From Alphaproteobacteria bacterium (GTDB lineage: Bacteria; Pseudomonadota; Alphaproteobacteria; JACZXZ01): a stretch of 53,748 bases of DNA. The stretch spans positions 1-53,748 of the forward strand of contig DATNIJ010000052.1 of NCBI GenBank assembly GCA_035604475.1. The letters are read 5' to 3'. Under the pieces are notes generated by a model. The model saw only the letters and a list, made by a program, of their open reading frames with translations. It did not search any database and had not been told where the DNA came from. Both the position numbers and the translations under genes were made by a program. Below, piece after piece: positions 10,422 through 39,554 of this stretch (the first letter of the stretch is position 1; each line of letters starts with the position of its first letter).

Positions 10422-10979
10422 ATGGATGCGTTGACGGCCCTCAAGACCCGTGTCTCTCCGATCAAGCTCGCCGAGCCCGCGCCGACGGCCGAGGCGCTCG
10501 AAGCGATGCTCGCGGCCGCCGTCTCGGCGCCCGATCACGGCAGGCTGAGGCCGTGGCGTTTTCTCATTTTCGACGGAGCGGCGCGGGAGCGTTTCGGGGA
10601 GTTGCTGGAGCAGTCCTTGCTCCGGCGCGAGCCGGAGGCGCCCGCCGCCAAGCGCGATGCCGAGCGCAAGAAGGCGGAGCGCGCGCCCCTTATCATCGTC
10701 GTCGCCGCCGCGGTCAAGGACGATGCGAAAATTCCGCCGATCGAGCAGATCGTCGCGGTGGGGGCCGCGGCACAGAATCTTCTCGTTGCGGCCCATGCGC
10801 TCGGCTACGGCGGCTTCTGGCGCACCGGGGCTGCCGCCTATGATGCGATCTTCAAGCGCGAGCTCGGCCTCGCCGAAAGCGATGCGATCGTGGGCTTCCT
10901 TTACGTAGGCTCCGTGGCCACGCCGGGACAGCCGAGACGGAGCGAGGCAGCGGACGCCGTTCGCCGTCTGCCGAGCTGA
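10422..10979 (+). CDS. Nitroreductase family protein
   Basis: 185 aa. The N-terminus ALKTRVSPIKLAEPAPTAEALEAMLAAAVSAPDHGRLRPWRFLIF is typical of NAD(P)H nitroreductases. Confidence 0.8.
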   Translation: MDALTALKTRVSPIKLAEPAPTAEALEAMLAAAVSAPDHGRLRPWRFLIFDGAARERFGELLEQSLLRREPEAPAAKRDAERKKAERAPLIIVVAAAVKDDAKIPPIEQIVAVGAAAQNLLVAAHALGYGGFWRTGAAAYDAIFKRELGLAESDAIVGFLYVGSVATPGQPRRSEAADAVRRLPS

Positions 10980-11084: not shown

Positions 11085-11161
11085 TGGTGGGCCCGGCAGG
11101 ACTCGAACCTGCGACAACACCGTTATGAGCGGTGCGTTCTAACCAGCTGAACTACGGGCCC
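11085..11161 (-). tRNA. tRNA with anticodon CAT (Met; acceptor stem suggests tRNA-Ile2/lysidine type)
   Basis: The reverse complement GGGCCCGTAGTTCAGCTGGTTAGAACGCACCGCTCATAACGGTGTTGTCGCAGGTTCGAGTCCTGCCGGGCCCACCA folds into a full cloverleaf with a CTCATAA anticodon loop, a GTTCGAGTC T-loop and an encoded CCA. It lacks initiator features: there is no 1:72 mismatch and no 3x G-C anticodon stem. Confidence 0.93.
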
Positions 11162-17247: not shown

Positions 17248-17283
17248 AAATCCCCCTCCCCCCTTGAGGGGGAGGGGGATTTT
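17248..17283 (+). terminator. Strong GC hairpin with trailing U-tract between carA and carB (terminator/attenuator-like or REP-like)
   Basis: AAATCCCCCTCCCCC-CTTGA-GGGGGAGGGGGATTT forms a 16-bp perfect stem with a 5-nt loop and ends in TTTT. It lies 23 nt upstream of the carB ATG. Confidence 0.45.
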
Positions 17284-17305
17284 CCTCTCGCCAATGACCG
17301 CGCCC

Positions 17306-20557
<3,252 letters not shown>

Positions 20558-28306: not shown

Positions 28307-28726
28307 CTACCCGATCCGCTCCCACAGGGAGCGCTCCTTCTCGACCTCGGCTTTCTCTTCGCCGTAGAAGTCGCGGCGCGAGACGACGCCCAAAATGCGG
28401 CCGCGCTTCACCACCGGCAGGTGGCGATAGCCGCCGTCCTCCATCATGCGGAGCGCCTCGAGCGCGAGCGTGTCGGGCCTCACCGTGTCGGGCTTCTCGG
28501 TCATCACTTGGGCGAGCGGCGTCGTCAGGGGATCGAGCTTCGCGGCAACGACCCGGTTGACCACGTCGCGCTCGGTGAAGATGCCCATGAGCTTGTGCTC
28601 GTCGGTGACCAGCACCGAGCCACAGTTCCGCGCCTTCATCAGGCAGGCGGCCTCGTAGACCGTAGCACTTGGCGCCAGCTCGGCGAACTCCCCACCCACC
28701 ATCATGTCCGCGATCTTGCGCAGCAT
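28307..28726 (-). CDS. CBS domain pair protein
   Basis: Start at MLRKIADMM. Two CBS repeats are present (..GSVLVTDEHKLMGIFTERDVV.. and ..YRHLPVVKRGRILGVVSRRD..). Confidence 0.85.
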   Translation of the reverse strand: MLRKIADMMVGGEFAELAPSATVYEAACLMKARNCGSVLVTDEHKLMGIFTERDVVNRVVAAKLDPLTTPLAQVMTEKPDTVRPDTLALEALRMMEDGGYRHLPVVKRGRILGVVSRRDFYGEEKAEVEKERSLWERIG

Positions 28727-29001
28727 GGCCCCACCTCCCAAAGCGAGATTTTCCCGGCGAGCCGCTCCGACGGGCCCCAGCATAGCAGGCCCCCGCTCCG
28801 GACCGAACAGCCGTCGTCCGGCCCGGGCATCGCCGCGCGGCAGCTTCGGCGCCGAAGGCCTTGTCCCTCCCCGGCAGGGGAGCATTTGATAAGTCATTTG
28901 GCTCGAGCCTAGCCGGTCGGGCCCGTATATGCCTATGGTGGATACGAGCCGAAATCAGCGCCCCCTGAGGGCGCACGGAGCGCAGCAAAGGACGAACCGC
29001 A

Positions 29002-36772: not shown

Positions 36773-37762
36773 TCAATCCGCCATCTCGAACTCGGCGACG
36801 ATGGGGGCATGATACGAGCCAAGCGAAGGATGGGCGGACAAGGGATCGCGGGCCTCGTCCGAGAGCCCCTCATTCTGGATCTCGACCCGGTAGGGCCAGG
36901 CCGCGAGCGCCGGCGAGACGAGCAAATGGTCGAGCAGGAGCGGACGGCCCGCGTGCAGCACCGAGTATCGCCGCGGCGCCGGCACGCTCTCCTCGAGCGC
37001 TGTCAGCATCCTCTCCGAACGCGCTCGCCCGCTGCCGTCGCGTTCGCCGCCGATCAAGACGCGCACGGGCGTCTCCCGCGCCTCGGCATTGAAATCCCCG
37101 CAGACCGCGATGAGGGCCGAGGCATCCGCATCGAACAGCCGCTCGACGACGAGCCGCGCCTCGAGCGCCTGACCCGCTCGCTTCATCGCGGCGAGGAAGA
37201 AGCCCTCGGCCCAACCGCCGACGCTCCGCCACTCCGCGGCGGAGACTTTCTGCCCCGGGATGGCGACCGCAAGGGGCGCCTTGAGGTGAAGATTGAGCAC
37301 GTGCAGCCTGCGGCCGCCTGGAAATTCGATCGCCGCATAGAGGAGGGGCCGATCCCAGCTGAGCGTGAGTGCCTCCTTGGCGGGCGGCGACGCCGTGACC
37401 AAGCGATAGCTCAATGGCGGCACGAGCTCGTGGTGGATCTGGCGGCTCGCCGCGATCGGATAGCGGCTCAAGAGCGCGAGATTATGGCGCTCGGCCGGCC
37501 CGTCGTGCGCGATGGGCCCGGTGAGCGCGCGGTTATAACCGAGGTAGAGCGTATCCTCGAGGAGATGATCGAGGGCCGTGAGCCGGCGCGGCAGGTGGCG
37601 CGCGACCGCCTGAGCGTTGACCTCCTGGAAGCAAAGGAGATCGGCCTCGAGGCGGCGGAGCTGCGGTCGCAGCACGGCGATGCGTTGCGAGAGAGCCGGT
37701 ACCGCGCCGGGCTCGTCGTCGAGGCTCTCGAGGTTGAAGGTAGCGATACGCAACCGCGCCAT
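36773..37762 (-). CDS. Endonuclease/exonuclease/phosphatase (EEP) family protein
   Basis: MARLRIATFNLESL...DLLCFQEVN is the EEP N-terminal catalytic motif. The C-terminal SYHAPIVAEF resembles the conserved SDH motif region. Confidence 0.8.
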   Translation of the reverse strand: MARLRIATFNLESLDDEPGAVPALSQRIAVLRPQLRRLEADLLCFQEVNAQAVARHLPRRLTALDHLLEDTLYLGYNRALTGPIAHDGPAERHNLALLSRYPIAASRQIHHELVPPLSYRLVTASPPAKEALTLSWDRPLLYAAIEFPGGRRLHVLNLHLKAPLAVAIPGQKVSAAEWRSVGGWAEGFFLAAMKRAGQALEARLVVERLFDADASALIAVCGDFNAEARETPVRVLIGGERDGSGRARSERMLTALEESVPAPRRYSVLHAGRPLLLDHLLVSPALAAWPYRVEIQNEGLSDEARDPLSAHPSLGSYHAPIVAEFEMAD

Positions 37763-37918
37763 CTCTCCTCCGCAGCACCCTCGAACCCGGCCTTATGCGA
37801 GGCGGGCTCCCGTCCAGGCCAACGAGCCGTCGATGCGAAAGTGGGGACCGGTTGGCGCCGGACCTTCTACGAGGCGCCGCCGCAGCGGGCAAGGGTCACG
37901 TGCGTTCGCGACCCGCAC

Positions 37919-37952
37919 AAAAGGTTCCGGCGGTCACTTGCGCGACCGCCGG
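37919..37952 (-). terminator. Intrinsic terminator-like hairpin (also the first terminator downstream of the 38079-38588 gene)
   Basis: A 9-bp GC-rich stem CCGGCGGTC/GACCGCCGG with an 8-nt loop is followed on the minus strand by AACCTTTTG. Confidence 0.6.
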
Positions 37953-37983
37953 CTCTCTAATGTGCTGGGGAGGGACTAGAGAG
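37919..37983 (-). ncRNA. Candidate FNR-box-dependent small RNA with a CCCUCCCC loop
   Basis: Minus strand: CUCUCUA-GUCCCUCCCCAGCACAU-UAGAGAG (hairpin 1) is followed by CCGGCGGUC-GCGCAAGU-GACCGCCGG and AACCUUUUGUG (terminator). Hairpin 1 starts at the position 41.5 bp from the centre of the perfect FNR box at 38018-38031. There is no ORF. Confidence 0.5.
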
Positions 37984-38017
37984 GCCCCTTCCTTAGCACC
38001 TCGCCCCAGGCGGCGAT

Positions 38018-38031
38018 TTGATCCAGATCAA
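38018..38031. promoter_or_regulatory. FNR/FixK box (perfect consensus)
   Basis: TTGAT-CCAG-ATCAA. Confidence 0.8.
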
Positions 38032-38078
38032 TTTTAAGGCAGGATTCTTCAGGCGGCGAAATACTGTGCCGCAGGCGA

Positions 38079-38588
38079 TCATCCCTTAAGTCTCAGGGCG
38101 TTGACATGGGCCCTGGTTTCCGGGAGGAGCCGCTTGCACATGCCAATCCCCTCCGCCCCGTAGCCCGCTTGGAAAAAGGGGCCAAGCCGGCGCTCGTCGA
38201 GTGCTACGCGCGCGCCCTGCTGCTGCGCCACCATGACATGGACGGCCACGCAGTCCGTTTTACGGGCCAAGCTGTCGATGGCGGCGATGAGCGCCTCGGC
38301 CGCGCCGGCACCATCGACGAGATCGAGAGCGACGAAGTTTTCGACCCGAAACGTTCGTCCGTGCTGAATATCCGGCAGGATCCTGTAACTGAACAGGCCG
38401 TAGATGTAACCGTCTGCGCCCTGGGCCGCAATCAGCCCCGCCTCACGCTCTCGGCCGGTCGCGCACAGACTCCGCCCATGTGCGAGCCACTCACCAAGCC
38501 CGAGGCGGGGGGCTATCGCATGAACAAGCGGATAGACCTGCGGCAGCCGGCTTAGAGGAAGCGGGCGCACTTCGTATCGTCTGCCCAT
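38079..38588 (-). CDS. Hypothetical protein (possibly GNAT-fold)
   Basis: 169 aa from MGRRYEVRPLPLSRLPQVYPLV, the lower part of the 516-aa ORF 38079-39629. The composition looks coding. The family call is weak. Confidence 0.5.
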   Translation of the reverse strand: MGRRYEVRPLPLSRLPQVYPLVHAIAPRLGLGEWLAHGRSLCATGREREAGLIAAQGADGYIYGLFSYRILPDIQHGRTFRVENFVALDLVDGAGAAEALIAAIDSLARKTDCVAVHVMVAQQQGARVALDERRLGPFFQAGYGAEGIGMCKRLLPETRAHVNALRLKG

Positions 38589-38657
38589 CTCCGGAAACGA
38601 GCCCTTCGCTATGCATTTCGGACGCCTTAAGTAAGCCATAGCGGCATTGGACCGGCA

Positions 38658-38671
38658 TTGATATGAATCAA
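38658..38671. promoter_or_regulatory. FNR/FixK box (perfect consensus) in the divergent region upstream of the fnr-like gene
   Basis: TTGAT-ATGA-ATCAA. Its centre lies about 41.5 bp from plausible transcription starts in both directions (about 38623 on the minus strand and about 38706 on the plus strand). Confidence 0.8.
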
Positions 38672-38819
38672 GAATCGATGTATCTCCCCTATCCAGGATA
38701 CACTCGGCCGCCCGTGACGCCATGGCGAGCGAGGGGCCACCGCGCCCCGAAATTGTTTCGTTCGGCTGGGCGCAGTAGACTGGCGAGCGGCTGGGGTAGG
38801 ACTGGGGATCGGATCGGCA

Positions 38820-39554
38820 ATGGCCACACGAAGGCGAGCGGGACGAGATATCGCCGCCCGTGCGGTTGCGAGCCCATGCGCGGCTTGCAAGGTTCGCGAC
38901 ATCTCCGTTTGCAGCGCGCTCGACGCGGACGAGCTTGCTCGGCTCACGGCAATCATGAGCACGCTCGGGATGCAGCCGCAGCAGACGTTGTTCTATGAAG
39001 GCGACCCCGCCGAGTTCCTCTTCAACGTCACGGGCGGCATGATTCGGGTCCACAAGCTCTTGGCCGACGGCAGGCGTCAGGTCACCGGATTTCTCTATCC
39101 GGGCGATTTCGTCGGCCTCGCGGTCCACGACAGCTACGCCTATACGGCCGAAACCGTCGTCGCCACCAGCGTCTGCCGTTTCCCGCGCACCAAGCTCCAT
39201 GCGCTCATGCGCGAGATGCCGCATCTCGAGAACCGCATGCTCAGCATGGCCTCGAACGAGCTCATCGAGGCGCAGGACCAGATGCTCCTCCTGGGCCGCA
39301 AGACCGCGCAGGAGAAGATCGCCTCCTTCCTCTTGATGATATCGCGCCGCGCCGGCCGGCGCGGACAGCCCGACAATCCCATCCATCTGCCGATGGGACG
39401 CACGGACATTGCCGACTTTCTCGGGCTCACCACCGAGACGGTGAGTCGCGTCTTCACGCAGTTCAAGACCTCGGGTGCCATTCGCCTCCTCGACAACTCG
39501 CGCGTGCAGCTCTCCGACATGCGCGCGCTCGGCGCCACGGCACAAGGGAGCTAG
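38820..39554 (+). CDS. Crp/Fnr family regulator, FnrN/FnrL/AadR type with N-terminal Cys cluster
   Basis: The N-terminal C-X2-C-X7-C motif (SPCAACKVRDISVCS) and central Cys (VCRFP) fit an [4Fe-4S] O2 sensor. A cNMP-like barrel is present, and the HTH carries E..SR (TETVSRVF), the determinant that reads TTGAT half-sites. Confidence 0.85.
   Translation: MATRRRAGRDIAARAVASPCAACKVRDISVCSALDADELARLTAIMSTLGMQPQQTLFYEGDPAEFLFNVTGGMIRVHKLLADGRRQVTGFLYPGDFVGLAVHDSYAYTAETVVATSVCRFPRTKLHALMREMPHLENRMLSMASNELIEAQDQMLLLGRKTAQEKIASFLLMISRRAGRRGQPDNPIHLPMGRTDIADFLGLTTETVSRVFTQFKTSGAIRLLDNSRVQLSDMRALGATAQGS

Follow-up and report, generated by a model that had tools for sequence, protein, structure and literature searches.

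In a stretch of 53,748 nt from an alphaproteobacterial genome (contig DATNIJ010000052.1; the whole stretch is called the window below), a perfect FNR-type box, here named box 1, lies past the stop codon of a minus-strand orphan gene and is followed on that strand by two adjoining hairpins. The best explanation, to which we give about an even chance, is that box 1 serves an FnrL-activated promoter situated past the orphan-gene stop. This promoter would produce an RNA of about 65 nt that shares its terminator with the orphan gene and acts by anti-Shine-Dalgarno (anti-SD) pairing, with the adjacent EEP gene (Exo_endo_phos, endonuclease/exonuclease/phosphatase family) and the regulator gene fnrL as candidate targets. 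The parts of the element are as follows.

38018-38031: box 1, TTGATCCAGATCAA, a perfect FNR/FixK-type palindrome centred at 38024.5; proposed FnrL activator site
37990-37998, minus strand: extended -10-like sequence TGcTAAGGA, with TG at -15/-14 and the hexamer TAAGGA at -12 to -7 if +1 is 37983
37917-37983, minus strand: candidate small RNA (sRNA) of about 65 nt, reaching from the predicted start through the U-tract; two-hairpin minimum free energy (MFE) structure
37953-37983, minus strand: hairpin 1, CUCUCUAGU-CCCUCCCCAGCAC-AUUAGAGAG, with the loop CCCUCCCCAGCAC at 37974-37962; proposed seed and anti-SD region
37927-37952, minus strand: GC-rich terminator hairpin, CCGGCGGUCGC-GCAA-GUGACCGCCGG and then AACCUUUUGUG, directly abutting hairpin 1

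Our reading of the sequence agrees with the original prediction of a perfect orphan box at this place. Box 1 begins 47 nt past the final stop-codon base of the minus-strand open reading frame (ORF) 38079-38588, and its near edge lies 256 nt from the ATG of the EEP gene (37762), or 262 nt if the distance is taken from the box centre, and a strong hairpin stands in this gap. It is an orphan with respect to coding genes, that is, away from any gene start, and it has the TTGAT-N4-ATCAA form required of a class II FNR/FnrL-dependent promoter. This form was found twice in the window, box 1 being one of the two, for 0.02 expected, and the looser form TTGA-N6-TCAA was found seven times for 0.3 expected. 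Given two perfect boxes and an island of seven, box 1 is not a chance match. Together the seven form a dense local FnrL regulon island. The five further boxes start at window positions 10431, 39621, 42055, 42194 and 48225; one is upstream of a universal-stress-protein (usp) gene, two are on the start side of hemN and two are elsewhere. For the boxes at ordinary promoter distance (orphan gene and usp), the box centre is 76-81 nt from the start codon.

Counting 41.5 bp from the centre of box 1 (38024.5 minus 41.5) places a predicted start at 37983 on the minus strand, from which the hairpin and the terminator follow in the order originally proposed. The extended -10-like sequence has T-12 and A-11, and its spacing is right for a class II promoter (-10 about 32 bp from the box centre); we infer that TGcTAAGGA may have a promoter role. 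GGTGCTAAG is invariant in the six variants aligned below, and the -10 hexamer reads TAAGAA in four relatives.

The history of the element was then considered among 168 loci, gathered by an EEP look-up and two collection scans. All carriers were metagenome-assembled genomes of uncultured Alphaproteobacteria or contigs from soil or peat metagenomes. Once contigs of 100% identity had been excluded, an alignment of six sequences of the element remained, in which variable sites were distributed as follows.

38032-38078, plus side, upstream of box 1: 19 of 47 sites variable (0.40), with indels
38018-38031, box 1: 0 of 14
37984-38017, spacer from box 1 to the predicted +1: 7 of 34 (0.21), no indel
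37953-37983, hairpin 1: 0 of 31
37927-37952, terminator stem-loop: 1 of 26
37915-37926, tail: 2 of 12
37789-37914, rest of the intergenic region: 24 of 126 (0.19)
EEP third codon positions: 60 of 329 (0.18)

An invariant run of 52 nt (37988-37937) spans the hairpins (permutation P = 0.0013, six relatives). In the RNA body only 1 of 57 sites varies, significantly fewer than at EEP third positions (P = 6e-4) or in the rest of the intergenic region (P = 3e-4). The hairpin block is, on these figures, under strong purifying selection; conservation of the proposed seed region beyond the neutral rate was found within one narrow clade only. The sole change in a stem turns a G-U pair into G-C.

Box 1 itself lies inside an invariant run (38033-38011, six relatives), and the flank on its plus side is hypervariable, with indels, at 38047-38067. 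The box is present in a further relative, L002, where about 120 nt are inserted between the orphan-gene stop and box 1, and yet the box and the flank downstream of it on the minus strand are retained. L002 (segment 1003-1170) is a relative about 93% identical, and its contig ends 14 nt past box 1, before any hairpin position. Because the spacing between box and hairpin is free of indels while the plus side varies, including by the insertion in L002, box 1 is, judged from the alignment, tied to the hairpin side and neither to the upstream ORF nor to the plus side. The original prediction had made the joint conservation of box and hairpin a check on itself; both are kept in the six relatives, at a spacing without indels.

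When the transcript 37983-37919 was folded, the MFE structure was the two-hairpin fold (-32.7 kcal/mol), with pair probabilities of at least 0.96 in hairpin 1. The C-rich loop originally described was recovered, and its dimensions were revised: ViennaRNA gives a stem of 9 bp and a loop of 13 nt instead of 7 bp and 17 nt. Of the eight bases of the loop motif CCCUCCCC, for which CCGAGCCC is the proposed mutated form, six are unpaired with a probability of at least 0.95 and the other two with 0.55-0.60. The terminator hairpin has 11 bp in the window, 9 of them GC pairs, with a GCAA loop and the tail UUUUGU; it is called as an intrinsic terminator, and no other terminator-like hairpin lies between the stop of the 169-aa orphan ORF and EEP. 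The z-score of the fold, -5.2, is owed mostly to the terminator.

No AUG-initiated ORF fits the candidate RNA, as had been claimed, the sole start codon being a GUG within the terminator stem. A small ORF in the intergenic region was rejected for either strand (variable sites 14/7/13 by codon position, hence no periodicity, and no AUG in the RNA), and so was a repeated or mobile element, as the candidate is single-copy in the window. A search of 37400-38800 at E <= 10 and one of the entire window at the gathering threshold gave no relevant Rfam match, and known families were rejected.

The presumed activator and the candidate targets are found on either side of the element.

38820-39554, plus strand: fnrL-type regulator gene (C20-X2-C23-X7-C31 and C119; E--SR recognition helix), presumed activator at box 1
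38790-38808, plus strand: site in the fnrL 5' leader, GCUGGGG-UA-GGACUGGGGA, complementary to nt 2-20 of the candidate RNA and overlapping the probable Shine-Dalgarno (SD) sequence
38658-38671, between the orphan gene and fnrL: box 2, TTGATATGAATCAA, the second perfect FNR box
38079-38588, minus strand: clade-restricted orphan gene of 169 aa (or possibly 186 aa, with a start at 38639); its mRNA would share the terminator
37766-37778, minus strand: EEP SD region, GUGCUGCGGAGGA, which matches the reverse complement of the hairpin-1 loop at 11 of 13 positions
36773-37762, minus strand: EEP gene, candidate target or beneficiary of read-through

The gene at 38820, originally described as fnr-like, is of the FnrL type, and the gene starting at 37762 encodes an Exo_endo_phos protein. 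The 244-aa FnrL protein matches the FnrL model at 4e-55 and has Cys20, Cys23, Cys31 and Cys119 and an ETVSR recognition helix, so that a cognate activator is encoded about 800 nt from box 1. An exact-match look-up of this protein returned no match. In the public contigs L003, L004 and L005, fnrL is called at only 194-199 aa, which cuts off the N-terminal Cys20/23/31 cluster; because the 244-aa ORF aligns with positions 5-234 of the model, the short calls look like mis-annotations of the start codon. A contig labelled 'uncultured Mycobacteriaceae' (L013) encodes an FnrL 58% identical to that of the window, which is alphaproteobacterial, and its label is probably a binning or labelling error. 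Downstream of fnrL are the usp gene and hemN; the other flank of the locus holds EEP and a thymidine phosphorylase gene.

Box 2 lies about 150 nt upstream of fnrL, and a box at the same distance is found in distant relatives, for example L012 (5831-5844), L044, L053 and L054. A perfect box about 150 nt before fnrL is maintained out to relatives about 50-70% identical, a pattern which suggests conserved autoregulation. Box 2 is probably fnrL's own autoregulatory box, since the same-distance box recurs so far away. It also stands at class II distance from the minus-strand ATG at 38588, and it may act both ways, on fnrL and on the orphan gene.

Candidate targets were ranked by a rough duplex screen of the loop region against 52 crude translation-initiation regions. 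The fnrL leader came first (-24.4 kcal/mol) and EEP second (-22.0 kcal/mol), so that the target prediction suggested earlier places the two flanking genes at ranks 1 and 2 of 52. When the whole of hairpin 1 was run against every window position on both strands, the fnrL leader was the best of 26,827 (-34.4 kcal/mol; mean -11.6, standard deviation 4.2 kcal/mol), and EEP was in the top 0.17%. The fnrL-leader duplex reaches -25.8 to -34.4 kcal/mol in close relatives and is at background in L012, which lacks the element. The 3' block of the leader site is invariant in relatives, and the EEP SD region is invariant in the six. A local duplication was rejected as the source of the complementarity: the only direct match is one of 19 nt at 79%, and the order of boxes and motifs fits neither a direct nor an inverted duplication. 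The assignments of EEP and fnrL as targets are best treated as leads.

Other partners for the loop were seen in the window. The closest non-self match to the loop complement, with one mismatch, is GCCGGGGAGGGAC (28863-28877, minus strand), among the opening codons of a minus-strand CBS-domain gene (28307-28897) and within a small hairpin, CTCCCC-TGCC-GGGGAG. The initiation region of a 1087-aa ORF (17294-20557) is very G-rich (GAGGGGGAGGGGGA) and is a strong scoring partner for the C-rich loop; just upstream of this ORF, at 17254-17276, lies an inverted repeat, CCCTCCCC...GGGGAGGG.

The mechanism that we propose would run as follows. A class II promoter dependent on FnrL would start minus-strand transcription at about 37983, with box 1 as its activator site. 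At low oxygen, [4Fe-4S]-FnrL would bind box 1 and induce the RNA. This non-coding RNA of about 65 nt would end at the terminator hairpin that the 169-aa gene also uses, and would thus be an sRNA of the 3' untranslated region (3'-UTR) type with a promoter of its own. The 5' hairpin, which carries the C-rich loop CCCUCCCCAGCAC, would repress translation by pairing with initiation regions rich in purines. Foremost among the candidate targets would be the adjacent EEP SD region and the leader and SD of fnrL, the latter giving a negative feedback.

Several points weigh against this mechanism. The candidate RNA is a prediction from sequence. With nhmmer and blastn, the box-hairpin-terminator segment was detected only in relatives whose DNA identity is 91% or more, and the covariance-model search proposed earlier for wider conservation did not extend this range: in 688 kb of related loci, model R1 recovered the window copy and no other. 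No covariation was seen in the stems among the close relatives, whose sequences are too alike; 19 of the 20 pairs are invariant, so the constraint could act on DNA and not on RNA. The coincidence of the first base of hairpin 1 with the predicted +1, on which the original prediction laid weight, is right as to position; it has no significance beyond that of a post-hoc coincidence with a rule-of-thumb distance. The fold depends on this assumed 5' end, since transcripts with slightly different ends lose hairpin 1: the addition of a few flanking bases changes the MFE structure and can abolish it. The -10 had been rated weak, and indeed a scan with a generic sigma-70 consensus called no promoter at TGcTAAGGA, where the conserved T at -7 is missing; the extended TG element remains plausible and is at the right place. 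The claim of an abutting intrinsic terminator holds for the window and not for all relatives: in L009 the U-tract reads CCCUAUGUG and the hairpin is not called as a terminator (the tail is GUUUGUG in L011 and L092).

The pairing is subject to similar doubts. In the 5' block of the fnrL-leader site, changes occur at the neutral rate while the RNA itself stays constant, and the window shows no enrichment of matches to the loop complement with at most two mismatches. In this GC-rich 1.2 kb, 19-nt repeats of about 79% identity are frequent, and nearly every strong SD can pair with a C-rich loop.

Which strand is coding beside box 1 matters, because the box is a palindrome. A plus-strand ORF of 149 aa (38106-38555) competes with the minus-strand ORF, and public gene callers disagree, Logan contigs carrying a minus-strand call of 186 aa and JGI contigs a plus-strand call of 149 aa; codon-position GC could not settle the matter. 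Among nine close variants, the variable columns in the overlap fall on 46 third, 9 second and 12 first positions of the minus strand (binomial P = 8e-6), and the minus ORF is intact in 9 of 9. Because substitutions favour its third positions and it is intact in all variants, the 169-aa minus-strand ORF is, on this evidence, a real gene, and box 1 is then not the promoter of the overlapping plus-strand ORF. That box 1 drives the plus strand, towards this ORF or an antisense RNA to the orphan gene, could be supposed because the box is palindromic, because the ATG at 38106 is 81.5 nt from its centre, the usual distance in the window, and because several public gene callers annotate the plus ORF. 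We regard this as highly improbable, and for the ORF, which was rejected as a gene served by box 1, as largely refuted: counted in the plus frame, 46 variable sites come at position 1 and 12 at position 3, L009 has lost the ATG, the sequence CGGCGA in the -10 region of the plus side (38054-38059) is not promoter-like, and no part of the locus varies more than the plus side, with its indels and the L002 insertion.

With a real gene upstream, box 1 sits in the 3' region of that gene, between stop codon and terminator, and the hairpins might be only the 3' end of its mRNA, as stabiliser and terminator. Box 1 would then be an FnrL site that has no promoter function, and would modulate or road-block orphan-gene transcription begun at box 2, or be a decoy; an sRNA would arise only by processing of the 3'-UTR. 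The gene stops 47 nt before the box and needs a terminator, box 2 is at class II distance from its start, the -10 is weak, and in Rhodobacter sphaeroides 13 FnrL sites found by chromatin immunoprecipitation sequencing (ChIP-seq) lie outside upstream regulatory regions (PMC4263372). Nevertheless, the distance from stop to box is free (the insertion in L002, indels in L011 and L092) while that from box to hairpin is fixed, the perfect palindrome and its flanks are themselves conserved, and a stabiliser or terminator role leaves the invariant 13-nt loop and the absence of any change in the 31 sites of hairpin 1 unexplained. We consider this account rather unlikely. It is distinctly unlikely, in our view, that box 1 is instead a low-oxygen promoter of EEP with a leader of about 220 nt, in which the terminator would be leaky or a regulated attenuator and the loop would pair in cis with the EEP SD about 190 nt downstream. 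Such a role would accommodate the match of the loop to the EEP SD region, the degraded T-tract of L009, which would permit read-through, and the lack of a consensus sigma-70 promoter for EEP in our scan. It has to contend with a window hairpin that is a strong terminator (11-bp GC-rich stem and U4), with the shorter distance of 76-81 nt at which other window boxes stand from their start codons, and with a candidate promoter of EEP's own. The latter, CTTGCC-N18-TAGAAG (37893-37864, minus strand), is alphaproteobacterial sigma-70-like, overlaps part of an 18-nt invariant run, and may be the one that EEP uses. In EEP relatives at 67-72% identity, neither box nor hairpin is found upstream, and EEP follows directly, after a short spacer, on a different gene; box 1 as an ancestral EEP promoter was rejected on this ground. 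In L132 and L134 there is a box about 290 nt before EEP, and it belongs to a divergent gene of 148 aa.

The account of an FnrL-activated sRNA fits best as that of a 3'-UTR-type RNA with its own promoter, a variant which the original prediction had mentioned, the upstream ORF being a real gene that needs this terminator. A more specific form of it, which we hold to be unlikely as a whole, is that of a young lineage-specific sRNA, arisen with the orphan gene beside fnrL, activated by FnrL, feeding back on the fnrL leader and SD and silencing EEP. As for the orphan protein, neither Pfam nor NCBIfam gave a match, and its homologues among 5.8 billion proteins form a single cluster. Its predicted structure was unusable (predicted local distance difference test score 42), and the best match in a PDB sequence search was a diamine acetyltransferase at E = 0.92; this match and the predicted order of secondary-structure elements faintly suggest a GNAT-like fold.

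The candidate was compared with known systems. The promoter of FnrS, in Enterobacteriaceae (RF01796), has a class II FNR site centred near -41.5. The candidate would resemble FnrS in its predicted FNR-type promoter, its pairing at or near ribosome-binding sites and its intrinsic terminator. It differs in being about half as long, in lying in the 3' region of a gene where FnrS is free-standing, in belonging to a different phylum-level lineage, and in sequence and structure: cmscan gave no match to this family, whether over 37400-38800 (E <= 10) or across the window (gathering threshold). FnrS is not known to target fnr, and in the literature on sRNAs feeding back onto fnr, no paper mentioning 'fnr mRNA' was found. 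FNR acts directly on the promoter of FnrS, and this small non-coding RNA is induced when oxygen is absent (PMC8139620). FnrS represses its mRNA targets.

The original prediction had likened the architecture to that of C-rich-loop sRNAs known in alphaproteobacteria, and this likeness proved to be partial at best. The cuckoo/αr14 RNAs, with as members CcsR1-4 (RSs0680a-d) of R. sphaeroides and NfeR1 or SmrC14 of Sinorhizobium meliloti, carry C-rich anti-SD motifs in hairpin loops of 9-27 nt followed by a terminator, and are defined by 2-4 adjacent hairpins, each with CCUCCUCCC (PMC4615179). The candidate shares the C-rich loop and the predicted terminator after it. It has a single C-rich hairpin, with the different motif CCCUCCCC, its second hairpin is the GCAA-loop terminator, and Rfam gave no ar14-type match; moreover, the cuckoo/αr14 RNAs are under RpoHI/HII or nitrogen and stress control, not FNR.

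The FnrL regulon of R. sphaeroides offers a likeness by description in that it includes sRNA genes and FnrL sites outside protein-coding promoters. FnrL ChIP-seq sites were reported there at the sRNAs RSs0019 and RSs2461, for which an effect of FnrL is not established, and the sRNA PcrZ is FnrL/PrrA-dependent, an effect of FnrL that may be indirect (PMC4263372, PMC8139620). As for its position, the candidate lies downstream of a coding ORF of the same strand and has its terminator in common with it, as do MicL, DapZ and NarS at the 3' ends of protein-coding genes. NarS, from the narK 3' end, is in the FNR/NarL regulon (PMC8139620). The promoter of MicL lies within the coding sequence upstream of it (PMC4102768), whereas the candidate promoter comes after the stop codon, and there is no homology to these 3'-end RNAs. 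FnrS, NarS and the R. sphaeroides cases are precedents for the proposed sRNA. A further parallel is found in Firmicutes. The C-rich regions of RoxS/RsaE pair with Shine-Dalgarno sequences. There are several such regions in this RNA, and, unlike the candidate, it belongs to an unrelated lineage and answers to a different regulator. RoxS/RsaE responds to oxygen or NO under the control of ResDE (PMC8139620). It is plausible that the candidate is a new, clade-restricted, FNR-activated sRNA acting by anti-SD base pairing. It is a member of neither FnrS nor cuckoo/αr14. Elsewhere in the window, a tRNA-Met (CAT; 11085-11161, minus strand) was the sole Rfam or ARAGORN match.

FNR-activated sRNAs are well studied in enterobacteria; for alphaproteobacteria there are only hints from ChIP-seq. 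The element described here is a well-supported candidate rather than a discovery, and as a kind of element it would not be new. If the proposal is true, it would extend the logic of an FnrL-dependent anti-SD sRNA to an uncultured alphaproteobacterial lineage of soil and peat, and would provide an example of the recent birth of an sRNA beside its own regulator. Regulator, sRNA and target would form a compact module within 1.3 kb. If the pairing with the fnrL leader holds, the RNA would be a feedback brake on the oxygen-response regulator, and this would be the first demonstration, for the FNR family, of a regulator restrained by its own sRNA.

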